Shown here one piece after another: positions 704 to 11,103 of a stretch of 64,000 nucleotides of DNA. Made by a program: the position numbers and the translations under genes. The stretch is from positions 32,001 through 96,000 of the forward strand of contig CAVTBV010000002.1 in the NCBI GenBank assembly GCA_963733095.1, written 5' to 3'. The stretch's first letter is position 1. Each line of letters begins with the position of its first letter. Source of the DNA: Candidatus Bathyarchaeota archaeon (GTDB lineage: Archaea; Thermoproteota; Bathyarchaeia; Bathyarchaeales; Bathycorpusculaceae). The notes under the pieces were generated by a model that was not told the origin of the DNA, searched no databases, and worked only from the letters and a program-made list of their open reading frames with translations.

Positions 704-2695
704 GTGTTTGTCGGGAGAAAACTGAAAAGTAAAATGATTAAGCAACAAGAGCAAAAAACCTTTGATGGTGCAATAATAGACAGTTCCACCAAGGAACCCA
801 TATGTAGAGAAGACCTGCTTGACCTTCTAAAATTACACCACGTGAAAACTTTATCGGTAGAAAACTCAAAAACATCCTTAGAAGACATCATCCCCACTTT
901 GAGAAAATCCAAGATAAAAATACCTGAAGCTTTCTTCAAAGTTTTAGCATCAAAATTAGGATTATCATGCTTGGACTACTCCACGGTAAAAAAAATATAT
1001 CAAGAGGAGCAACAACGCAAACTTATTACAATTCTGCCCTACTCAATCATAAGCAAATACAAAATCATTCCCTTGGAAATAAGAGGTTCAGTTATAGATT
1101 TAGCTGTCGATAACCCCATTGACACCAGAGTTCTCATTACTGTTCAATATTTGTTTAGCTCTTGGAAAATTAATCTGCGGGTAGTCTCTTCAAAATCCAT
1201 CGAATGGGCAATCGAAAACATATACCGTGAAATCCACAAGAACAAAGCAATGCTTGACCTCTACAACCGTACACCTGACCAGTCCGCCTACAGAGTGCTC
1301 TACCCCAAACAAAAATACTTTATAATATCCGTAATCGCCGCCATAACCATTTGCACTGCTATAAGCTCAGCGGTAACTTTCATGGTTTTATTTGCAATAA
1401 TTAGCGTCGGATACTTCATAGTTAATCCCATTAAAATCTACATTTCTCTGCGAGGCTTTAAAGGTGCAAGAACACCTACACGAATCACAAAGGGCGAACT
1501 ACAATGGGTACAAGACGAAGACCTCCCAGTCTACACTGTCCTGATTCCAATATTCCGTGAAGCAAAAATCCTACCTCAAATCCTGCGAAACATTTACCGT
1601 CTCAATTATCCAAAGAACAAACTGGACATCAAAATACTAATCGAAGAAAAAGACACTGAAACCATTGACGAAGCCAAACTGTTAGGGTTGTTTGGGTCAC
1701 CCAAGAAAAGAGTTGAAGGCATTCCAAGCAAGGAATATACCGAGTTTCTGGAGCTTTTTGATACGATTGTAATTCCTGCAGCAAAAGTAACCACTAAACC
1801 GCGGGCATGTAACTATGGTTTGCTGCGGGCAAAAGGTGAACTAGTCGTTATTTATGATGCTGAAGACCAACCTGAACCCGACCAGTTAAAGAAGGCCGCC
1901 ATTGTTTTTCTTCGTTCTGGCAACGATGTCGTGTGTCTGCAGTCTAAGCTTAACTTTTACAATGCAGATGAAAACGTATTGACGAAGTGGTTTTCGATTG
2001 AGTATGCGAACTGGTATGAGTTTTATCTGCAGGGTTTAGATTGGATTGAGGCGCCTATTCCGTTGGGCGGTACAAGTAACCATTTTAGAAAACAAGGTCT
2101 AGATGAGCTTGGACGGTGGGACCCATACAATGTTACTGAAGATGCTGATTTAGGCCTAAGGTTAGCTCGTCAGAAGCAGAAGACTGAATTGATAGAATCT
2201 CATACCTACGAAGAAGCTACCATAACAGCCAAAAGTTGGATTCGTCAGCGTTCTCGTTGGTACAAGGGACACCTTCAAACTTACCTTGTTCATATGCGGC
2301 ATCCAAGACAGCTCCTCAAGGATTTTGGGGTAGAAAAATTCCTCAAATTCCAGTTTACCTTCGGAACATCGATCTTTATTCCTCTTATAAACCCAATACT
2401 TTGGATACTTACTGCTGCAAGTTTTCTGTTACCTGTAAATTTAAGCTGGCTCAGCCCTGGTTTCCTGCAAGTAATCTGTCTCTTCAACTTGATAGCTGGC
2501 AACATTTCTTATCTATCCATATATGTCGTAGCATGCATAAAATTGAAAAAATACCGTTATACACCTAATGCTTTGCTTATGCCCCTGTATTGGGTGCTTC
2601 ACAGCATAGCAAGCTGGCGAGGCCTAATTCAACTGATACGAAACCCCTTTTACTGGGACAAAACCAGCCACGGCGTATCAAAAGTCACAAAATAA
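704..2695 (+). CDS. Membrane GT2 glycosyltransferase with N-terminal T2SSE_N/MshEN-like domain
   Basis: LPVYTVLIP, TKPRACNYG, IYDAED, GGTSNHF, VTEDADLG and QRSRW motifs; C-terminal TM helices; N-terminal KYKIIPL...LAVDNP resembles GspE N-domain. Start may be ATG 734. Confidence 0.85.
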   Translation: MFVGRKLKSKMIKQQEQKTFDGAIIDSSTKEPICREDLLDLLKLHHVKTLSVENSKTSLEDIIPTLRKSKIKIPEAFFKVLASKLGLSCLDYSTVKKIYQEEQQRKLITILPYSIISKYKIIPLEIRGSVIDLAVDNPIDTRVLITVQYLFSSWKINLRVVSSKSIEWAIENIYREIHKNKAMLDLYNRTPDQSAYRVLYPKQKYFIISVIAAITICTAISSAVTFMVLFAIISVGYFIVNPIKIYISLRGFKGARTPTRITKGELQWVQDEDLPVYTVLIPIFREAKILPQILRNIYRLNYPKNKLDIKILIEEKDTETIDEAKLLGLFGSPKKRVEGIPSKEYTEFLELFDTIVIPAAKVTTKPRACNYGLLRAKGELVVIYDAEDQPEPDQLKKAAIVFLRSGNDVVCLQSKLNFYNADENVLTKWFSIEYANWYEFYLQGLDWIEAPIPLGGTSNHFRKQGLDELGRWDPYNVTEDADLGLRLARQKQKTELIESHTYEEATITAKSWIRQRSRWYKGHLQTYLVHMRHPRQLLKDFGVEKFLKFQFTFGTSIFIPLINPILWILTAASFLLPVNLSWLSPGFLQVICLFNLIAGNISYLSIYVVACIKLKKYRYTPNALLMPLYWVLHSIASWRGLIQLIRNPFYWDKTSHGVSKVTK

Positions 2696-2784: not shown

Positions 2785-3012
2785 ATGTGTATTCCTTTTT
2801 ACATGCTTCTTCGAACTAGAATTGGGCAGTCCGTTGCCGTTGTCCATGCAGTCCAAAAAATTGAAGGCGTAAAAGTGGTACATTCTGTCATGGGAAACTA
2901 TGATGTTGTACTCTACGCTGAGGGAAAAGATCTTCAAGACGTTCGGCGTATCCGCGAAGCAGTACATCAACTAGCCGATGTAACGATAACGGAAACAGCA
3001 GTTCACGCCTAA
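2785..3012 (+). CDS. Stand-alone Lrp/AsnC ligand-binding (RAM) domain protein
   Basis: KIEGV...VMGNYDV...V..TET pattern; no HTH. Confidence 0.8.
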   Translation: MCIPFYMLLRTRIGQSVAVVHAVQKIEGVKVVHSVMGNYDVVLYAEGKDLQDVRRIREAVHQLADVTITETAVHA

Positions 3013-3150
3013 TATTTTGATAAGTTGAGGAATAGTTTGACAGATTCTCAGTCAAATGTTTTCCTAAGTTTACTTAAAATCCAATTCTGACAGAAAAGTT
3101 CAGACTTATAGTAAACTTTAATTGCTCTTTACTCTTCAATTAAAGTATAG

Positions 3151-3387
3151 GTGAAATCGATGTCAATCCCTTTTTACATGCTTCTTCGAACAAGAACTGG
3201 GCAGTCACGTGATGTAGTCCATGCAACACTTAAGATTGATGGCGTTAAAGTTTCACATTCTGTCATGGGAAACTATGATGTAATCCTCTATGCTGAAGCA
3301 AAAAATCTCGAAGACCTAAGAAGCATTCGAGTAGCTGTCGAGCACATCAATGGCGTAAATTTAACTGAAACACTAATTCACGCCTAA
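3151..3387 (+). CDS. Stand-alone Lrp/AsnC ligand-binding domain protein, tandem paralog (likely start ATG 3160)
   Basis: Highly similar to upstream copy (IPFYMLLRTR.GQS, HSVMGNYDV). Confidence 0.8.
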   Translation: MKSMSIPFYMLLRTRTGQSRDVVHATLKIDGVKVSHSVMGNYDVILYAEAKNLEDLRSIRVAVEHINGVNLTETLIHA

Positions 3388-3575
3388 ACTTCTTAGAATT
3401 CAGTTAAGATTAGACTAACCCACAAGGTTTTTGGCTTTTGACCTTTTATGTTAACCTTCTGAAGCTAACAATGGGCGGCTCAATCAATGCATTCTTATCT
3501 AATTTCATATAGAAGAGGCGCTGAATGCTTTTTGGTTTAAACAGAAACTAAATACAAATAAAGTCGTTCAATTTC

Positions 3576-3601
3576 CTACAACTTTGGACGATGAGAAAAT
3601 C
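3576..3601 (+). repeat. Recombination-site-like repeat, 25/26 identical to 4696-4721
   Basis: CTACAACTTTGGACGATGAGAAAATC vs CTATAACTTTGGACGATGAGAAAATC. Confidence 0.75.
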
Positions 3602-4682: not shown

Positions 4683-4727
4683 TTTGGACGATACGCTATA
4701 ACTTTGGACGATGAGAAAATCGAGGTA
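4683..4727 (+). repeat. Tandem recombination-site-like arms and left 17-bp direct repeat (attL candidate)
   Basis: TTTGGACGAT at 4683 and 4703; ATGAGAAAATCGAGGTA (4711-4727) recurs exactly at 10786-10802. Confidence 0.7.
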
Positions 4728-4790: not shown

Positions 4791-6203
4791 TTGAATCAAA
4801 AATACGAGCTTTGGCTTAACCAAATTTGTGGAACTGCTGCCTCTGAAAAAAGGTACAAGGAAGACATTGGAAACTTTGAAGAGTGGGCTAAATTAAATCA
4901 CGCTTTAGAAGTTTCAGATATTCCTAAAATGTGGAGAGAAGCCAAATACTCAGACAAGCAAGCTGATAGAGAGCGCTTTCTTGATGAGTTAAAGGACGTT
5001 GTTAGCAACTATTTTGTTTATCTCAAAAAATATGGTTATACTTCTCTTAGTATCAATCGCGCTATGGCAACTGTAATGAGTTTTCTGCATTATTTCGACA
5101 TCCCGTTAAAACCAATCAGAATTCGGCATCCTTTTGTTCAATACCATAATCGGGACATTACTAAGGATGAGATTAGAACTATTTTGAAGAATTCGGGAGT
5201 GAGAAACAGAGCAATTTATCTGGTTCTTTATGAAACGGGTATGAGACCCGCGACTGCTGTTAGTTTACGTTGGAAACATATCAAAGAAGACTTTTTAGCG
5301 AAAAAAGTTCCTATGAAAATTAAGCTAACAAGTGACATTATGAAGTGTGGCGTTAGTGAACGCTTTGTTTTCATTGGGCAGGACGGGTATGATGCTCTTA
5401 GTCTCTATATTAGAAGGCGAGGTTTGCCCTCGGATGATGAGGATTTTGTTTTTGTTACTGAGAAACCTTTCGGTAACGCAATAGGACTTAATTCAATTAG
5501 TCAAGCCTTCAATGTTATTGTTCAAAGGTTGAAGCTTGCAGAGCCAAGAGGACAACTGACTAAGGATGGTAGGAAGAATAAGCCTAAGGAGTTAAGGCTC
5601 TATACTTTGCGGAAGGCTTTTTCGAAGTTTATGGCTGTTAACATTGATAGAACCTTAGTTGAGTATTGGCTTGGGCATACCTCAACTGCAACTCATTATG
5701 TTTCTGAAGATGTGGAGTTTCATAGAGCGCAATATGCTAAGGGCTATTCTGGACTACAATTAGACATTTCTCCATTACCCACAACCATTATGGATGACTT
5801 GAAGAAAAAAGACCAAGAAATCCAATTATCAGCGAGACAAATTCAAGAACTAAAACAAGAATTGTCCAGCCAACAAAAACACATAGCCAAACTCACTACT
5901 TTACTCTATAAAATCGTTGACCCATACGACGAAGATGGAAAACGTCAATTTGAAGAAGAAGCTGAAAGGCAAGCAAACTTAACAAAAGAAGAAAGGAAAA
6001 CGCAAGAAGAAATCGCTGAAAGAACTGAAAAAGCCCTTAATGAATTTAGAGTCCTCTCCGAGGAGGAGAAGGAAAAACGCCGCAAAAGTAATTCACAGAT
6101 AGCACATTTAGATTGGGAAGGGGTTTTTGAATCGTTATCTGAAAGAATTGAACAATTAAAAAAGCTCTATGAAGAAGAAAAGCAAAAAAAGCCGATAAAT
6201 TGA
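4791..6203 (+). CDS. Tyrosine recombinase/integrase with C-terminal coiled coil
   Basis: LYETGMRP (R), LYTLRK (H replaced by Y in HxxR), WLGH, THY catalytic Tyr. Confidence 0.88.
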   Translation: MNQKYELWLNQICGTAASEKRYKEDIGNFEEWAKLNHALEVSDIPKMWREAKYSDKQADRERFLDELKDVVSNYFVYLKKYGYTSLSINRAMATVMSFLHYFDIPLKPIRIRHPFVQYHNRDITKDEIRTILKNSGVRNRAIYLVLYETGMRPATAVSLRWKHIKEDFLAKKVPMKIKLTSDIMKCGVSERFVFIGQDGYDALSLYIRRRGLPSDDEDFVFVTEKPFGNAIGLNSISQAFNVIVQRLKLAEPRGQLTKDGRKNKPKELRLYTLRKAFSKFMAVNIDRTLVEYWLGHTSTATHYVSEDVEFHRAQYAKGYSGLQLDISPLPTTIMDDLKKKDQEIQLSARQIQELKQELSSQQKHIAKLTTLLYKIVDPYDEDGKRQFEEEAERQANLTKEERKTQEEIAERTEKALNEFRVLSEEEKEKRRKSNSQIAHLDWEGVFESLSERIEQLKKLYEEEKQKKPIN

Positions 6204-6574
6204 GGGATGAAATGTTAATTGTAAAATTATGTGAAAAAAATAAGCCTTGCAAACTCTGTTCAGGAGAAAAAAGTGAAATATTGAGGTGCAAGGGCAATGG
6301 AAAGTATTATTTGAATAACTCAGACGAATACCCGATTCAACAAGGGCTGTTTAGAAAACTAAAGAAAAGTCATCATATCTATTTTTGGTACACTTACTTT
6401 TCTGGGCATTCAATTACTGGATTTTGTTTAGACAATGAAGCCCTAAAAATAGTGCAAGAAGAAGGCTACTCTATTGAAGTTGACAAGAAATTAACTCAAG
6501 GTGCAACATATGAACCTAAATTTCAACAACTAAGCTTGAAGGAACGTTGCTTAAGGAGTGAACATTATCTATGA
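6200..6574 (+). CDS. Hypothetical protein, Cys-containing
   Basis: Overlaps both neighbours by 4 nt (translational coupling). Confidence 0.55.
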   Translation: MRDEMLIVKLCEKNKPCKLCSGEKSEILRCKGNGKYYLNNSDEYPIQQGLFRKLKKSHHIYFWYTYFSGHSITGFCLDNEALKIVQEEGYSIEVDKKLTQGATYEPKFQQLSLKERCLRSEHYL

Positions 6575-7104
6575 GTAACCCACAAAGCTCGCAGAAATCA
6601 ATGAGACAATTAGATGCAACTAAACAAAAAATTGAGCACGCGATGATGAATATAGAAAGCGCTGAACAAGAACAGGATGAATATATTTCAAAATTACCCG
6701 ACCATTTTGCGGAAATTTTAAAGAATTACATGAAAGAAAGAGATTTTGATTACGAAAGCACATTTCTTATCCCATTGGCGAGACTAATCGAGGATGAAGG
6801 CAAAATGAGCTTAAACGATGTCATTAGAGAATCTGGTCTTGCAAGACAGACTGTTTATACCAATTTAAAGAATTTAGTTAGGAGTGGTTTTCTATCAAGA
6901 AAAAGTATTGTAACTGGGCGAGGAAGACCAACAATCCTTTACTATAGAACACAGAAACCAATCAATTCCATCAAAGTTGAAAACGCAGTAACAATAACCT
7001 TTCAAAAGCTAAAACATGCGTGCAGATTTGAAAAGGGAGGCTTTTGTAAAGAGAAAAAATGCCATTGCTCCCCAACATTATGTCCAATAATTATAAAGAA
7101 GTGA
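6571..7104 (+). CDS. Winged-HTH transcription regulator with Cys-rich C-terminus
   Basis: SLNDVIRESGLARQTVYTNLKNLVRSGFL...GRGRPTILY; C-terminal CRFEKGGFCKEKKCHCSPTLCP. Confidence 0.75.
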   Translation: MSNPQSSQKSMRQLDATKQKIEHAMMNIESAEQEQDEYISKLPDHFAEILKNYMKERDFDYESTFLIPLARLIEDEGKMSLNDVIRESGLARQTVYTNLKNLVRSGFLSRKSIVTGRGRPTILYYRTQKPINSIKVENAVTITFQKLKHACRFEKGGFCKEKKCHCSPTLCPIIIKK

Positions 7105-7178
7105 TTTAAAAAGAATAATGAATTAAATCTATTTGATTACATCTAAACGGCAATTTTTGAATAACATAAATAAACAAG

Positions 7179-7558
7179 GGGCAGCCTCGCTTCGCTCGGC
7201 TGCCCACGACTTTCTTAATGTATCTTTGAAAGGGGATTACAAAGAACCATGTGTAGTGGTAAGCGAAGAAGCGCGGTCTTGCGAGTCCGCTCTTTTCATT
7301 CTTGCTCGTTGCCCTGTTAGGTGAGGGCAACGCAGTCGAGAACCGCATTGTAAAAAAAATGCTAATCCCCATTGACGACTGCTAATGTTTGTTTTTGAGG
7401 CGTGTTAAAGTCAAAAAGCGGCCAGACAAAAGGTTTATCGTTAGCGCTGTTCAGCTCATCGCCAATCGTAAACCTTTTGCCCTTCTGGTGCTTCGCATCT
7501 GGCGCTTTTTGACACGACTACGGTATGTGAGGGGCGCATATCAGCCCCGCATTGTAAA
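7179..7558. other. Highly structured non-coding element (ncRNA or folded ssDNA origin)
   Basis: Perfect stems at 7179-86/7198-205, 7232-39/7363-70, 7307-15/7324-32, 7410-20/7503-13, 7427-37/7469-79 and 7531-35/7544-48. Confidence 0.6.
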
Positions 7559-7582
7559 CAGACTCTACACTTCACAAAAAAC

Positions 7583-7590
7583 TTATAAAT
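7583..7590 (+). promoter_or_regulatory. TATA box candidate for tupABC
   Basis: A-rich BRE-like run followed by TTATAAAT, about 50 nt upstream of the tupA start; AAGGAG precedes the start. Confidence 0.5.
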
Positions 7591-7636
7591 AGTAACACGA
7601 TAGGAATGACCACGCACAACGACAAGGAGAAATAAC

Positions 7637-8626
7637 GTGAAAGCATGGCAGACTATCTTAATAGTAGCGGTAATAGCCACAATAATGGTAATCGCAGGGA
7701 CTTTTGCATACTACAACTCTCTCCCTACACCAAACCTAAGAATATCCTCAACCACGAGCCTCTGGGATACAGGACTACTGACAGAAATCAAAAACCAATA
7801 TGAATCAAACCACAAAATTGACATCTCAATTCTTCCCCAAGGAACAGGACTCGCATTAGCAAGTGCATCAGCAGGTGACGCCGATGTTGTCCTTGTACAT
7901 GCGCCATCATCAGAATACCCTTACCTATCTAATGGTACTCTAGTTTGCAGGAAAATCGTTGCATGGAATTACTTCACAATAGTTGGACCAAGCTCCGACC
8001 CAGCTCAAATCTCGGGCAAAAATGCCACAGAAGCCCTAAAAAGCATAGTAGCTTACGCCAATAGCCAAACATCGCAGTCAACAATTTGGATTTCCCGTAA
8101 CGATGCCTCAGGAACGTTCTCAAAAGAGCAAAGCCTCTGGAAAAGTGCAGGATTCAATTGGACCCAGATATCCAAAGAACCATGGTATTCAAGCACAGGA
8201 CAAGGCATGGGCGCAACATTAGTAATAACTGACCAAAAAAACGCATACACAGTCTCAGACCTAGGAACATTCCTTCAGTTTTCTAAAAACGGAGCAGTCT
8301 CTTCATCACAAGTTTCACTGGTGCAAGCAGACTACTCTCTACTGAACGTCTATAGCGTTTACGCAGTCAATCCACAAAAAATAAGCGACACTAGCTACAA
8401 TGAAGCCATTAACTTCATAAAATGGTTAGTTTCAGACACAGGACAACAGGTAATAAGCAACTACGGAGCAGGCAACTATACACAAACTCTATTCTCTGGT
8501 GCAGTCCAACCGCTCATAACAGGCAGTCCTCAACCAGATGTCAACTGGATAAAACAGTACGCCTACTTCAATGGTACCGAATGCCCAACACAATTCCAAG
8601 ATGACCACCCCGAACTTTATCCCTAG
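7637..8626 (+). CDS. tupA: Tungstate ABC transporter substrate-binding protein
   Basis: STTSLWDTGLL, GTGLAL, VHAP, SRNDASGT and GQGMGATL motifs of TupA. Confidence 0.9.
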   Translation: MKAWQTILIVAVIATIMVIAGTFAYYNSLPTPNLRISSTTSLWDTGLLTEIKNQYESNHKIDISILPQGTGLALASASAGDADVVLVHAPSSEYPYLSNGTLVCRKIVAWNYFTIVGPSSDPAQISGKNATEALKSIVAYANSQTSQSTIWISRNDASGTFSKEQSLWKSAGFNWTQISKEPWYSSTGQGMGATLVITDQKNAYTVSDLGTFLQFSKNGAVSSSQVSLVQADYSLLNVYSVYAVNPQKISDTSYNEAINFIKWLVSDTGQQVISNYGAGNYTQTLFSGAVQPLITGSPQPDVNWIKQYAYFNGTECPTQFQDDHPELYP

Positions 8627-8637
8627 AGGAAAATCTG

Positions 8638-9369
8638 TTGAATCAAATACTGGACGGAATAATCCAAGCCTTTCAGCTAATATTCGCAGGCGACCCAACA
8701 GTATATGGCGCTGTTTACCGCACCCTCCTTTTTTCTGGTGTAGCAACTATACTTGCAGTATTATGGTCAATGCCAATAGCGATGTTGTTAACTCTGAAGG
8801 ACTTTACTGGTAAATCAATAGTAAAAGGTTTTTTCACAGCAATGATAGGTCTGCCTACTGTAGCCTTAGGCTTAATCCTGTTTCTCACGTTTTCGAAGGC
8901 TGGACCGTTAGGCTTTTTTGGGCTTCTTTATACTCCAGGAGCAATAATGCTTGGTGAAGCCATACTAATCACTCCTTTGATTGTTAGCATAGGAGTTAGC
9001 GCCATTGAAGCTGTCGATCCTGAAATGTTTAATCTTGCAAAAACTCTTGGCGCCAATAGTTCACAAGCGTCAGTAACTATTATGAGAGAAGCCTTGAGTG
9101 GCATTTTATTTTCAAATATAGCTGGTTTCAACCGTGCAATCGCTGAACTCGGTGTAGCTTTGATGGTTGGAGGAAACATTGTAGGTGCAGGTGTACACTC
9201 AACTGATGTCCTGACAACAGATATTTCGACTCTTACTGCTCGAGGTGAGTTTGCGACCGCCATCGCACTTACGGTAATTTTACTCTTGCTAGTTTTTGGC
9301 ATAAATCTGATAGTGTACCTAGCTAGAAATCCAAAAATACTCACATTGTGGGGAAGGATGCCCCAATAA
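8638..9369 (+). CDS. tupB: Tungstate ABC transporter permease
   Basis: GLPTVALGL, GPLG..GLLYT, RAIAELG...VGGNI, VLTT motifs. Confidence 0.88.
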   Translation: MNQILDGIIQAFQLIFAGDPTVYGAVYRTLLFSGVATILAVLWSMPIAMLLTLKDFTGKSIVKGFFTAMIGLPTVALGLILFLTFSKAGPLGFFGLLYTPGAIMLGEAILITPLIVSIGVSAIEAVDPEMFNLAKTLGANSSQASVTIMREALSGILFSNIAGFNRAIAELGVALMVGGNIVGAGVHSTDVLTTDISTLTARGEFATAIALTVILLLLVFGINLIVYLARNPKILTLWGRMPQ

Positions 9370-9373
9370 AACC

Positions 9374-10450
9374 ATGGAATTGCAGAAAATGACGGCACTT
9401 GTAGAATTAACCAATGTAAGTAAACGCTTCAAAGACAGATGTGCACTTGACAACATAAATCTGCAGGTTCAAGAAGGAGAAATTCTTGCTTTGCTTGGAC
9501 CTAACGGTTCAGGAAAAAGTACATTACTTAAAGTTCTTGCTCTTCTGTTGCCGTATGATGGTGGAGAAATAAAATTCCACGGTGTTAAGGTTACGGGAAA
9601 AAATTTGGAACTCTTGCGACTGCAAAGTACTCTCGTCTTCCAAAAGACGTTGCTCCTTAATACCAGCGTGTTCAACAACATAGCTTATGGACTAAAAATT
9701 AGAAAAATGCCTAAAGACAAAATAGCTCAAGAAGTTCACCGAGCCTTGAAACTTGTGAAGTTGGAAGGTTTCGAAAAGCGTCCAGCCAAAAAACTTTCAG
9801 GAGGTGAACAGCAAAGAGTGTCTATGGCAAGGGCATTAGTGCTGCAAACAAAACTGTTGCTACTTGATGAACCCACCGCAAACTTGGATCCAAAAAACGT
9901 AGCGATTATTGAAGAAGTGATTTCTGCAGTTAACCAGCAACTCAAAATAACCGTAGTCATGGCAACACATAACATGTTCCAAGCAGAAAGTTTGCCTACT
10001 CGAATAGCCCTAATAAATGAAGGGAGGATTACAGAAGTCGGTACCCCTAGGAAGGTTTTCGGTAAAATTTCAAAGAACCTTGCAAGTTTTGCTGCTGTTG
10101 ATAACACATTTAGCGGAATAGCGAAAAATTCAAGCGAGGGCATAGCAATTATTGATTTAGGTAATGAGATACTTCTTGAGGCTGCCACCGATAGATGCGG
10201 CGAAATTAAATTTTTTATAAGTCCGCATGACATAATTTTATCTAAAAAGAAAGTGATTTCCAGCGCAAGAAATGTCCTTCAAGGAAAAATTTCCTCGATA
10301 AGCGACTTAAATTCTCTCGTTAAGCTCATTGTGGATGTTGGCAAGCCGTTTACTGTTCAGATAACAAAAAAATCTTTTGCTGAAATGAGCCTAAATCTGG
10401 GGACAGAAATTTACATAACATTTAAAGCTTCAAGCGTACAAATCCTTTAG
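9374..10450 (+). CDS. tupC: Tungstate ABC transporter ATPase with C-terminal TOBE domain
   Basis: GPNGSGKST, LSGGEQQR, LLDEPT; C-terminal SARN...FKASSV TOBE. Confidence 0.88.
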   Translation: MELQKMTALVELTNVSKRFKDRCALDNINLQVQEGEILALLGPNGSGKSTLLKVLALLLPYDGGEIKFHGVKVTGKNLELLRLQSTLVFQKTLLLNTSVFNNIAYGLKIRKMPKDKIAQEVHRALKLVKLEGFEKRPAKKLSGGEQQRVSMARALVLQTKLLLLDEPTANLDPKNVAIIEEVISAVNQQLKITVVMATHNMFQAESLPTRIALINEGRITEVGTPRKVFGKISKNLASFAAVDNTFSGIAKNSSEGIAIIDLGNEILLEAATDRCGEIKFFISPHDIILSKKKVISSARNVLQGKISSISDLNSLVKLIVDVGKPFTVQITKKSFAEMSLNLGTEIYITFKASSVQIL

Positions 10451-10719
10451 AAAACTATTTGATGCTCTCGGACCAACGCAACATATTTATTTTTAGATTA
10501 CTTCTTCCAAAGTTGGTATATCTGGTTAATCAAAAAAGCTATTAATAGTTAAGTCTTCGGGTGATTTCCCCTTTAAAGAAATTTAATAATCAACCGAAAG
10601 CAACACATTTTAACCCTAAAGTCTTGAGCTTAAACCGGTCAAATCTTCAATCTCTCTAAAATGCGTGTTTAAAAATATTTTCCCAATATAGATAATTTAA
10701 ATTCTACTATGTAAGAATC

Positions 10720-10802
10720 AATCAAGTTTATTGTCAAATAATACCCAAACATTGAAATTTGCAGTTTTCAATCTAAGATTGGGCTATGAGAAAATCGAGG
10801 TA
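10720..10802 (+). repeat. Composite site (inverted arm, spacer, right arm), attR candidate; homologous to 20964-21029
   Basis: TTTATTGTCAAATA 10727-40; ATTGGGCTATGAGAAAATCGAGGTA 10778-10802. Confidence 0.65.
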
Positions 10803-11103
10803 CGATGAAGCTGAAAGTGGGGAATAAAAACGCTGGAGGCTTGTGAATACTTTTTCCGCTATTGAGCCCAAAACTAATAATTTCATCACTATATTGTTAG
10901 TGTATCGAGGTACGATGAAGCTGAAAGTGGGGAATAAAAACGCTGGAGGCTTGTGAATACTTTTTCCGCTATTGAGCCCAAAACTAATAATTTCATCACT
11001 ATATTGTTAGTGTATCGAGGTACGATGAAGCGGAAGGCGGGGAATTAGTGCTGGACGCTTGTGAATACTTTTTCCGCTATTGAGTCCACAACTAAGAAAT
11101 TTC
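10794..11103 (+). repeat. 110-bp tandem repeat: two identical copies plus one diverged partial copy
   Basis: ATCGAGGTACGATGAAGC begins at 10794, 10904 and 11014. Confidence 0.92.

Follow-up and report, generated by a model that had tools for sequence, protein, structure and literature searches.

Positions 7177-7555 of the analyzed DNA have a three-part layout: a structured small RNA, which we call RNA-1, a long bulged hairpin (domain 2), and a 27-nt putative recombination site (site B). The folded family to which they belong is carried on mobile DNA of soil Bathyarchaeia, is previously undescribed and is without an Rfam match. The DNA, here called the window, is a stretch of 64,000 nt from Candidatus Bathyarchaeota archaeon (GCA_963733095.1, CAVTBV010000002.1, 32,001 to 96,000 of the forward strand). 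Hardly anything is known of the mobile elements of Bathyarchaeia, an abundant group without cultured members. The family adds a new structured RNA with a covariance model able to find its members, and a defined 27-nt site for inserted, often defense, genes, by which islands and cassettes can be mapped.

The full explanation that we favor, with roughly half of our confidence behind it, is an RNA gene that travels on an element and is joined to two integron-like recombination sites. The locus would be the end-module of an integrative element family in one Bathyarchaeia genus, in which a promoter drives a structured RNA of five helices and the RNA gene ends in a site A. Sites A and B would be two related recombination sites with one common short core, here CCGCATTGT. 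Xer-like tyrosine integrases, mostly encoded just upstream, would recombine at B, and probably at A, so that cassettes of genes or entire elements are inserted or swapped on the downstream side of the RNA, in the manner of an integron platform. The inserted genes would often be defense genes, and in the window the insertion would have happened beside tupABC. The window copy has no T-run terminator, and its transcript probably runs on through domain 2 into site B. We infer that the RNA serves either recombination or expression of the inserted genes; the strong T-run that follows A in most copies speaks against expression of cassettes by read-through. The features of the locus, all on the + strand, are as follows.

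4791..6203, +: tyrosine integrase ('type 2'), upstream of and co-oriented with RNA-1 (PF00589, E 3.8e-12)
6200-6574, +: ORF124, after the type 2 integrase
6571-7104, +: winged-helix protein with HTH family matches, after ORF124
7140..7176, +: putative archaeal promoter of RNA-1, A/T-rich and TATA-like, assigned by homology to the upstream family block
7177..7363, +: RNA-1, structured small RNA with helices P1-P5 (covariance model R2)
7179..7205, +: P1 hairpin, followed by an ACGAC motif at 7206-7210; changes on both sides in 5/5 pairs
7265..7297, +: P4 hairpin, GCGCGG...CCGCTC with an A-U extension; changes on both sides in 8/11 pairs
7308..7331, +: P5 hairpin, stem of 7-8 bp and variable 8-nt loop
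7324..7351, +: site A, the 3' end of RNA-1 and a relative of B, ending in core copy 1, CCGCATTGT, at 7343-7351
7352..7409, +: spacer, with A8 where most relatives have a T-run, a further ACGAC motif and a T5 run at about 7392-7396
7410..7513, +: domain 2, a long bulged hairpin with an inner hairpin and a loop with GTTCAGCTC
7514..7528, +: linker with an ACGAC motif; CGAC-type motifs precede B in most copies
7529..7555, +: site B, putative 27-nt recombination (att) site with a 5-bp hairpin, an 8-nt loop and core copy 2, CCGCATTGT, at 7547-7555
7546..10571, +: tupABC block, common to the related genomes G107 and G128 (Pfam PBP_like_2, BPD_transp_1 and ABC_tran+TOBE)

Fold and distribution of RNA-1

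The initial annotation of this region, made from the letters alone, described it as densely base-paired and as a candidate novel non-coding RNA. Both descriptions held. The interval 7170-7570 folds at -143.8 kcal/mol on the + strand (z -5.21) and at -141.5 kcal/mol on the - strand (z -5.81), and on neither strand was any of 100 shuffled sequences as stable. A search of Rfam 15 gave no match at the gathering score across the 64-kb window; at E ≤10, six sub-threshold matches fell within 6900-7800, the best at 16.6 bits (E 2.3). The stems and the direct repeat lie in the window where the annotation had placed them: GGGCAGCC (7179-7186) with GGCTGCCC (7198-7205), GTTGCCCT (7308-7315) with AGGGCAAC (7324-7331), a long stem (7410-7426 with 7498-7513) enclosing an inner stem CAAAAGGTTTA/TAAACCTTTTG, and a hairpin of GGGGC (7531-7535) with GCCCC (7544-7548). 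Homologs back the P1 hairpin, the CGTTGCCCT hairpin (P5), the long second domain, the GGGGC/GCCCC hairpin and the repeat. The annotated GGGGATTA/TAATCCCC and GCATT/AATGC stems are peculiar to the window copy, most relatives having a T-run there after the first repeat. The GC content had been called high relative to the flanks, which is true of the upstream side (0.455 at 7201-7600 against 0.345 at 6601-7000) and not of the downstream side (0.44). A coding reading was rejected: the 88-aa and 67-aa frames have no Pfam match and no frame is kept in 23 homologs, where the longest stop-free stretch falls on the + strand in 10 loci and on the - strand in 13, leaving no conserved open frame.

Covariance model R2 matches 7177..7363 from end to end (126.4 bits, E 8e-36). 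There are three copies of RNA-1 in the source genome. Within one Bathyarchaeia genus, 12 of 120 genomes carry the RNA (5 of the 73 of good quality), none of 150 genomes of a class-wide sample does, and its distinct loci number 37 in total. The metagenome and genome-collection scans were exact matches to 21-22-nt patterns, which miss divergent members. The pattern for site A had no match in IMG/VR. Viral origin was considered and rejected: the 16-nt pattern for B had 17 IMG/VR matches, none with the context of B, indicating chance matches.

The comparison of homologs that the annotation had proposed as a check, including the balance of G-U against A-C as a guide to the strand, came out in favor of an RNA. 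In a model-fitted alignment of 43 distinct sequences, which are related to one another, 92.1% of RNA-1 cells are paired, compared with 74.6% in shuffles and 42-48% when the partners are slid; 0 of 500 shuffles reached the observed value. Compensatory changes on both sides occur at 35 of 41 pairs and the covariation score is 0.215 versus 0.067, with all five measures beating 500 of 500 shuffles and every slid control. On the + strand, 50 cells are of G-U type versus 23 of A-C type. The stem of P1 changes in sequence among relatives while its CTTCG-type loop is kept, and P4, with 95% of its cells paired, has an apical extension that differs in length. The stem of P5 is almost invariant across relatives, and its loop is variable at 8-10 nt. 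Since P5, A and B are nearly invariant they yield no covariation, and could act purely as double-stranded DNA sites. Free energies favor the + strand in 9 of 32 loci when the 5' domain is folded (the - strand in the other 23), in 20 of 35 for P4-P5 and in 9 of 25 for domain 2 with B.

Signals at both ends fit a transcript. A strongly conserved upstream block of the family stops about 20-27 nt before the first helix, and the putative promoter in the window has the same position and a partly similar sequence. A run of T6 or longer starts within 12 nt past the core in 25 of 37 loci, the window copy being without one. An element-encoded structured RNA, as the annotation had offered among its readings, is thus supported for 7177-7363 because a TATA-like promoter is conserved, five helices covary and a T-run follows the 3' end in 25/37 loci; these signals suggest that RNA-1 is transcribed.

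Sites A and B and their common core

The 12-nt direct repeat picked out in the initial annotation is the key feature of the locus, since it is the common core of two related sites. The only exact copies of CCGCATTGT in the whole 64 kb are those at 7343 and 7547. Sites A and B are identical at 15 of 22 aligned positions in addition to the core. Across 28 loci their cores agree at 128 of 140 positions, while shuffled pairings agree at 94.6 +/- 4.8 and 0 of 10000 reach 128. The core occurs in four variants (CATTG, CTATG, CAAG and AGATG), in which the 5-6 nt after CCG change jointly at A and B. Judged by their letters, A and B are related sites whose cores change together. By eye, comparison of the P5 loop with the flanks of B gave no further guide-like correlation.

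Site A is invariant across the family and is where the breakpoint of its mosaic members is located. Loci L019 and L055 are alike in the body and not downstream (identity 0.94 versus 0.35), and the reverse is seen in L016/L071 (0.03 versus 0.86) and L050/L067 (0.13 versus 0.93). Domain 2 of the window type is also found in L015, L017, L018 and G118. In other types the sequence differs and the fold persists; across domain 2 copies the median z is -3.05, and 14 of 27 score under -3. The domain 2 loop motif is present in 20 of 27 copies, and also sits on extended P4 helices in 10 of 37. A miniature element inserted in the RNA gene between A and B, supplying the T-run, was rejected as the main reading because none of 27 copies has a T-run directly after B, and L020, L055 and L079, the three loci with RNA-1 and no B within reach, keep the T-run. 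Such an insert may still apply should larger elements extend past the contig ends.

Site B is nearly invariant, with four copies in the source genome, and is found in 21 of 120 genomes of the genus; a reversed control gave 0 matches. It recurs as direct repeats. One pair in the source genome is 10.9 kb apart: in C9, the complete B is at 116703 and its repeat, with about 45 nt in common, at 105786. A pair 886 nt apart encloses a single NERD gene, and other pairs, elsewhere, are separated by 1289 nt, 531 nt and 11.4 kb. The G107 pair includes the 3' arm of domain 2, and lone B copies bring 18 to about 45 nt of that arm with them. The NERD gene is the one single-gene cassette clearly seen, and arrays of at least three B sites were not seen. 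B pairs are also present in three genomes where RNA-1 was not found (G012, G034 and G107), indicating that RNA-1 in cis is not required for every insertion. Five queries found no integrase in the 11.4-kb B-flanked segment of G107. We regard B as a recombination site: it is a repeated junction, on which integrases would act. The initial annotation had suggested a recombination substrate, and this fits the short GGGGC/GCCCC hairpin with CCGCATTGT rather than the bulged long hairpin that it had in mind.

Integrases, inserted genes and the insertion beside tupABC

A tyrosine integrase lies within 2 kb of the RNA in 9 of 36 distinct loci, upstream and co-oriented in seven and downstream and convergent in two. 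Xer-like recombinases are the best family match of these neighboring integrases, and four of them score 49-70 bits against NCBIfam NF040815 (XerA / integron integrase), for which the cut-off is 220. Among genomes with a type-1 integrase (≥67% identity), 4 of 5 have RNA-1, compared with 12/120 overall. The window integrase shares 30% identity with its counterpart upstream of the RNA in L021, and the HTH proteins of the window and of L018 share 37%. In 10 of 12 loci the genes that follow B point the same way as the RNA; AbiV, NERD, HamA with a helicase, and DUF4145 are among the genes beyond B.

In the window, the tupABC homology starts from 7546/7553, at 93% identity to G107 and 91% to G128, and ends near 10571. 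The homology to G107 begins at 7546, inside the core. On this comparison the DNA left of 7546 is foreign and that right of 7546 is common to the relatives. Both G107 and G128 have tupABC with its TATA-like box and are without the RNA element, consistent with the annotation's view that the element is unlikely to be a tupA riboswitch. No second B or core was found upstream of the window integrase, nor was the left end of the insertion found; the left-hand flanks seen in G107 and G128 lack a syntenic counterpart in the source genome. Action of the window integrase on B is uncertain. The island is bounded by a different repeat, with copies at 3583, 4703 and 10778 and with an empty site in G107, and this enzyme may act there. 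Around the relatives of the window integrase in G022, G020, G029 and G035, neither A nor B lies within 1.5 kb.

Comparison with known systems and rival readings

Integron attC sites are imperfect palindromes that span 57-141 nt, end in RYYYAAC / GTTRRRY and follow an R''/R' consensus. The likeness to attC-type sites proposed in the initial annotation failed, as this consensus is found neither in B nor at the ends of domain 2 (GTCAAAA... / ...TTTTGAC in the window) and the integrases fall far below the XerA/integron cut-off. The bases after the core are GTTGA, GTTAG or GTTGG, and among the copies read only one fits GTTRRRY. Integrons, with their intI, attI, attC and Pc parts, have also been reported in Archaea, in a paper that does not mention 'Bathyarch' (PMC9668308). 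Like an integron, the locus has a tyrosine recombinase gene beside a primary site and a second, hairpin-forming site type that bounds recombinase-less inserts; the inserts are mostly co-oriented, both kinds of site have a common short core, and the platform promoter faces the inserts. Unlike an integron, it has distant Xer-like integrases, a B of 27 nt with a 5-bp stem, an integrase co-oriented with the inserts where that of integrons is divergent, a structured RNA gene in place of attI, and arrays that, where seen, are short with one insert.

Genes for tRNA and tmRNA are integration targets of phages and islands. As with those targets, the 3' end of a structured RNA gene would here be the att site, an integrase gene adjoins the site, and partial 3' copies stand as direct repeats around the insert (the C9 and G107 pairs). 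In contrast to those genes, the RNA is accessory and travels on mobile DNA, and B is a separate relative of the RNA 3' end, 130-270 nt downstream, in which the same core is kept. The recombinases of IS110/IS1111 elements are of the DEDD/serine type, and their RNAs have two internal loops complementary to target and donor, as described in a 2026 review of RNA-guided recombination, which covers tyrosine recombinases only as conventional enzymes (PMC13604230). The phrase 'RNA-guided tyrosine recombinase' did not occur in the literature searched. Both systems place a structured non-coding RNA in a non-coding element end beside a recombinase gene, with a copy of the site core. The recombinases here, however, match PF00589 (phage integrase) and Xer models rather than DEDD. 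Two internal guide loops were not found; only the 3' tail of RNA-1, a single stretch of about 9 nt in the same sense, matches and tracks the site, and any function of the RNA is putative.

Two readings rival the one that we favor. It is unlikely, in our judgment, that RNA-1, domain 2 and B are an accessory RNA gene used as a landing site in the way of tRNA/tmRNA genes, with lone B sites as partial 3' duplicates on incoming elements and an RNA function unrelated to recombination. Such a landing site would fit C13 and C9, where the order is RNA, B, then cargo with a convergent integrase, and a partial B copy follows 10.9 kb on. It would also fit the stretches of domain 2 arm on lone B copies, as well as a variant RNA, alike in promoter and P1 and different in its 3' body, that also abuts a type-1 integrase. 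A conserved host gene would behave otherwise, however: the RNA is sporadic (12/120 genomes, 5/73 good ones), is missing at the unoccupied tupA site in both G107 and G128, and entered the window together with the island. Of the 9 linked loci, 7 have the integrase upstream of the RNA and not past its 3' end, and the same core at the internal site A is left unexplained. The locus poses a puzzle, an RNA gene that ends in a copy of the recombination core varying in step with the site. The second rival is a guide-like RNA. The RNA-1 tail, which has the top-strand sequence of the att core, would pair with the opposite, bottom strand of both donor and target cores and help the integrase to choose or align sites, functionally like the bridge and seek RNAs of IS110/IS1111 with a tyrosine recombinase instead; we consider this quite unlikely. 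In its favor, the four variants alter tail and att core jointly, whereas elsewhere A and B remain unlike each other, three integrase types that are mutually 20-30% identical accompany an almost identical RNA end and B, the window junction has 9 nt in common with the relatives, which is little for protein-only recognition, and in 7 loci the integrase gene and the site have the RNA gene between them. On the other side, the pairing would span no more than about 9 nt, some genomes have B pairs and no detectable RNA-1, a second recombination site needing the same crossover sequence accounts equally for the joint change, and neither a second covarying guide segment nor an RNA-binding domain was identified. 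There is a slim chance that RNA-1 is a recombination cofactor of tyrosine integrases whose tail, by pairing with donor and target cores, sets or checks the choice of site. If so, it would be the first RNA-assisted tyrosine recombinase, with retargeting by about 6-9 nt changed together in RNA and site. Any role of the RNA in recombination would mean that RNA assistance is not confined to the IS110 family and reaches the largest family of recombinases; without such a role, the locus is still an integron-like platform of different parts.

Two further readings do without a recombination role for the RNA or without an RNA at all. We think it very unlikely that promoter, RNA-1 and domain 2 form a long cis-acting 5' leader that regulates the downstream gene (tupA in the window) through a T-run at which termination is conditional. 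The orientation of the genes that follow agrees with this in 10 of 12 loci, and a structured RNA followed by a T-run has the look of a terminator-type switch, but the downstream genes are mutually unrelated (transporter, AbiV, NERD, Hachiman, secreted proteins), tupA has its own TATA-like box that is kept in relatives without the element, and three loci lack a co-oriented gene or B. A single-stranded DNA structure in place of an RNA, either a replication origin, a reading of the annotation that gained no support, or a folded recombination substrate like attC or the CTX phage attP, seems highly improbable. Helices that are almost all Watson-Crick, strands that fold about equally well, conserved bulges in domain 2 and ACGAC-type motifs that recur like iterons would suit such a structure. 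Against it stand the promoter and T-run bracketing RNA-1 on one strand and the excess of G-U-type over A-C-type cells (50 versus 23); additionally, no replication initiator or rolling-circle gene is consistently nearby, and junctions map to B, not to the long hairpin.

The RNA gene with an integron-like pair of sites, which we favor, also resembles Xer/dif systems. Xer/dif-type sites and dif modules are short sites, with inverted arms around a center, that flank small gene modules. The present loci similarly combine Xer-like recombinases with a B of about 24-28 bp, with putative inverted arms around an 8-nt center, flanking small modules. B differs from a chromosomal dif in occurring in only 21/120 genomes, as direct repeats and beside an RNA gene.

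Structure and distribution of the candidate RNA

The stems and direct repeat described in the initial annotation are present in the window sequence at the positions it named, and its proposal of an exceptionally folded region was borne out: the folding energy of 7170–7570 is −143.8 kcal/mol for the + strand (z −5.21) and −141.5 kcal/mol for the − strand (z −5.81), with none of 100 shuffled sequences as low on either. A search of the entire 64-kb window against Rfam 15 gave no match at gathering score, and the only matches below threshold within 6900–7800 were six of ≤16.6 bits (E ≥2.3). The element lies outside every Rfam family. The window as a whole also lacks any Rfam RNA gene at gathering score, tRNA included. 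Neither of the two frames that cross the region (88 and 67 aa) has a Pfam match, and the longest stop-free stretch switches strand (+ in 10, − in 13) and frame among 23 homologues; the region is therefore non-coding.

Features of the element (5' to 3', + strand)
TATA-like block, ~20–27 nt upstream: A/T-rich, conserved in the family
RNA-1, 7177–7363: predicted structured RNA with helices P1–P5, as follows
P1, after the TATA-like block: GC hairpin, CTTCG-type loop kept, stem sequence changing
ACGAC motif, after P1: one or more copies
P2, then P3, after ACGAC: P3 variable
P4, after P3: GCGCGG...CCGCTC plus A-U extension; apical extension of variable length
U-rich linker: P4 to P5
P5, after the linker: invariant 7–8-bp stem, variable 8–10-nt loop
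3' of P5: invariant 16 nt with terminal CCG, then X (variable 5–6 nt)
Site A, 7324–7351: 3' end of RNA-1; module A is the P5 hairpin with the following nucleotides
Domain 2, 7410–7513: second folded domain, between X and B
Site B, 7529–7555: hairpin of 5 bp with an 8-nt loop, then CCG and X' (variable 5–6 nt)

A full-length covariance model, R2 (195 positions, 41 pairs), matches window 7177–7363 end to end (126.4 bits, E 8e-36). The 50 aligned matches comprise 43 distinct sequences, with four weak antisense or partial rows kept in. Among them 92.1% of cells are paired, against 74.6 ± 0.8% when shuffled (reached by 0 of 500 shuffles) and 42–48% with partners slid, both sides change at 35 of 41 pairs, and the covariation score is 0.215 against 0.067 shuffled and ≤0.059 slid; these figures lean towards structure, being drawn from related sequences in a model-fitted alignment. 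On the + strand there are 50 G-U-type cells to 23 of the A-C type, and a free-energy comparison of the two strands over homologous loci favours neither clearly; assignment to the + strand therefore depends mainly on the promoter block upstream, on the T-run and on the surplus of G-U-type cells. By these comparisons RNA-1 is a covarying structure with a putative promoter upstream.

Oligo-T is the archaeal termination signal. A T-run of at least six begins ≤12 nt after the CCG in 25 of 37 distinct loci and ≤26 nt after it in 28 of 37. The window copy lacks this run, having A8 instead, with only a T5 run 46 nt further on.

Domain 2 retains a closing stem and inner hairpin while its sequence varies across at least three types, some copies having additional inserted hairpins. 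Its folding has a median z of −3.05 (14 of 27 copies below −3), and its stems change in a compensatory manner: GACATAAACC/GGTTTATTGTC in some copies is GACATAAAGT/ACTTTATTGTC in others, and a second stem pair is GGTCG/CGAC, GATTG/CAATC or GCTTG/CAAGC. The inner loop reads GTTT(A/C)AGCC or GTTCAGCTC in 20 of 27 copies. In 10 of 37 sequences the extended P4 of RNA-1 is capped by this motif too, which suggests a common RNA-binding partner for the two domains. Domain 2 of the window is of the same type as in L015, L017, L018 and G118; since no T-run directly adjoins X in this type, a single ~380-nt transcript from RNA-1 to B is plausible in the window.

BLAST against the assembly of the window located pieces of the element on two further contigs, C13 and C9, plus a fourth, partial copy; this genome has three full copies.

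Modules found in the window's own assembly
Module A (CGTTGCCCT hairpin and next 20 nt): C13:15553, C9:116919
Module B (as window 7529–7555): C13:15686, C9:116703, C9:105786

Exact-pattern scans returned 28 metagenome loci and 9 in the genome collection, 8 of the latter titled Bathyarchaeota or Bathyarchaeia. The ninth, L019, is a full copy on a 2.4-kb contig (CAZIAN010000733.1) binned as a Pirellulales bacterium; given the taxonomy of the rest of the family, a binning error is more likely than a bacterial copy. R1, a covariance model of module A, had matches in 12 of the genus's 120 genomes (the window's own counted), in 5 of its 73 good-quality genomes, and in none of 150 other genomes sampled class-wide. 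A plain BLAST search was negative for all 24 genomes from the order's other families, and IMG/VR held no match to module A. The family is therefore an accessory one of sporadic occurrence and, within this sampling, restricted to a single genus. At least 8 of the 28 metagenome contigs break off within ~100 nt of module A (L053, L054, L059, L060, L061, L062, L064 and L078), as an invariant, assembly-breaking repeat would be expected to cause.

Site B as a junction and block exchange at site A

Of 120 genomes of the genus, 21 contain a 19-nt pattern for B (≤1 mismatch allowed), more than the 12 that carry RNA-1; the reversed pattern used as control was found in none. B occurs in direct-repeat pairs 10.9 kb apart in C9 (~45 nt common), 1289 nt apart in G012, 531 nt apart in G034 and 11.4 kb apart in G107, where five integrase queries found no match in the flanked segment. 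At L017 the pair is 886 nt apart, a NERD-domain gene is the sole gene between, and the second B consists of the 27-mer alone. Two relatives, G107 and G128, have tupABC without the element, at 93% and 91% identity to the window over the longer aligned block. In both, homology to the window begins inside the core, the short shared sequence that ends A and B (at 7546 and 7553, respectively); the G107 site is CCCGCATTG, and leftward of it there is no similarity to the window. From the repeat pairs and the homology that starts in the core, B is a recombination site and, with its core, a junction where foreign DNA is joined.

Aligned with a single 2-nt gap, the 3' half of module A and B are identical at 15 of 22 positions, and the core continues both. 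X and X' are equal at 128 of 140 positions (28 loci with both, 5 nt each) against 94.6 ± 4.8 for random pairing, and none of 10000 shuffles reaches the observed value, which is not a probability since the sequences are related. Agreement is at 5 or 6 of 6 positions in 23 of 28 loci; in two low rows (L063, L074) the pattern was placed at the wrong spot, and the true B of L063 reads CATTGT vs CATTAT at A.

The core has four variants (CATTG, CTATG, CAAG and AGATG) and switches between near-same RNA bodies, as in L057/L071 (body identity 0.81, downstream 0.27). Other pairs are mosaic in either direction.

Identity on the two sides of module A
L019/L055: RNA body 0.94, downstream 0.35
L016/L071: RNA body 0.03, downstream 0.86
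L050/L067: RNA body 0.13, downstream 0.93

By these identities the family is mosaic around an invariant module A, and the block from X to B is swapped as one unit. Inside each block both cores are alike and the remainder of A and B is distinct, a pattern that plain gene conversion would not give.

Integrases, neighbouring genes and a proposed mechanism

A tyrosine integrase lies near RNA-1 in 9 of 36 distinct loci, with ≤2 kb of flank examined and many contigs short. It is upstream and co-oriented in the window, L017 (a pseudogene), L018, L021, L053, L060 and L075, and downstream and convergent in C13 and C9. These integrases are of at least three types with mutual identity of only 20–30%, and all are distant Xer-like proteins far under NCBIfam cut-offs. 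Seven places in the genus have an integrase ≥67% identical to type 1: four adjoin RNA-1, one (G134:C2) adjoins a variant RNA, and two have neither RNA within 1.5 kb. The variant (L128, G134:C2 ~301200–301480) shares the promoter, P1 and the CGACGACG (CGACGAC) motif and has an unrelated GC-rich 3' body, which also lies upstream of a B-like site in G094 (L151). The RNA family may thus be wider than R1 and R2 detect. About 440 nt upstream of the RNA are conserved at 83–88% identity among C13 (15040–15315), C9 (~117350–117590) and G134:C2, including a possibly coding 77–91-aa frame of odd composition; beyond lie Pro/Thr-rich membrane-anchored proteins.

In the window and in L018 a winged-helix protein is encoded between the integrase gene and the RNA (the two proteins are 37% identical). 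In 10 of 12 loci the first genes past B point the same way as the RNA. They are tupABC in the window and often anti-phage defence genes elsewhere: NERD, HamA with a DEAD/ResIII helicase, DUF4145 and HEPN_AbiV (L017 2327–3088; L022; L018; C9 116134–116682, AbiV; C13 15822–16340). The C13 gene resembles an AbiV relative by eye, without a Pfam match.

At the level of sequence, the comparisons show that B recurs as a junction, that A and B are related sites whose cores match, that blocks are exchanged at A, and that the family is linked to integrases. We propose that the integrases would recombine sites having a common core: recombination at B would insert cassettes and elements, recombination at A would swap the X-to-B block, and the RNA of this platform would be made from the conserved promoter, which points towards the inserts. 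As a whole, we hold this integron-like reading to be evenly balanced. Against it, B pairs also occur in genomes without RNA-1, most copies have a strong T-run between RNA and inserts, no B is within reach of RNA-1 at three loci, and there is only a single clean one-gene cassette. That the RNA is merely a gene used as a landing site is unlikely, and that its tail serves as a guide-like cofactor slightly more so; a role as a cis leader is improbable, and we give least credence of all to the structure acting as single-stranded DNA.

The element differs from a canonical integron, whose integrase model its integrases do not reach and whose attC consensus its site does not resemble. Nor is it a bridge-RNA system, because its recombinase is of another class and it has no paired guide loops, and it behaves differently from a conserved host tRNA-type target. 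Functionally its closest parallels would be an integron platform or a tRNA-type att region, here with a gene for a structured RNA forming part of the site. In the excerpted text of a report on archaeal integrons, canonical IntI and attC are described and Bathyarchaeia go unmentioned (PMC9668308); in that of a 2026 review, the RNA-guided recombinases are IS110/IS1111 systems only (PMC13604230). Phrase searches of a paper library found no RNA-guided tyrosine recombinase.

The island in the window

In G107, one copy of another repeat stands immediately after a 663-aa gene (window 704–2695), and homologues of 12281 onward come next. The window has copies of this repeat at 3583, 4703 and 10778, the last opening 2.8 tandem 110-nt units.

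Copies of this repeat in the window
10794–11103: tandem repeat, 2.8 copies of a 110-nt unit, 93% matches
4696–4721: 19–26-nt piece of the unit, just upstream of the integrase
3576–3601: the same piece, 1.1 kb further left

Given the single repeat copy at the corresponding empty site of G107, ~4703 to ~10800 looks like one insertion. It contains the integrase (4791–6203, +; type 2), ORF124, the HTH protein, the RNA, B and tupABC. The window integrase may act on the 110-nt-unit repeat rather than B; probably the repeat supplies this integrase with an att site or with a small RNA gene. Within the island, the RNA module was joined to tupABC at the B core earlier than this insertion; the left partner of that join was looked for and not found. 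To the left, two 239-nt direct repeats at 2785–3023 and 3160–3398 (73% identical) each cover a short frame resembling a small ligand-binding protein of the Lrp/AsnC type.
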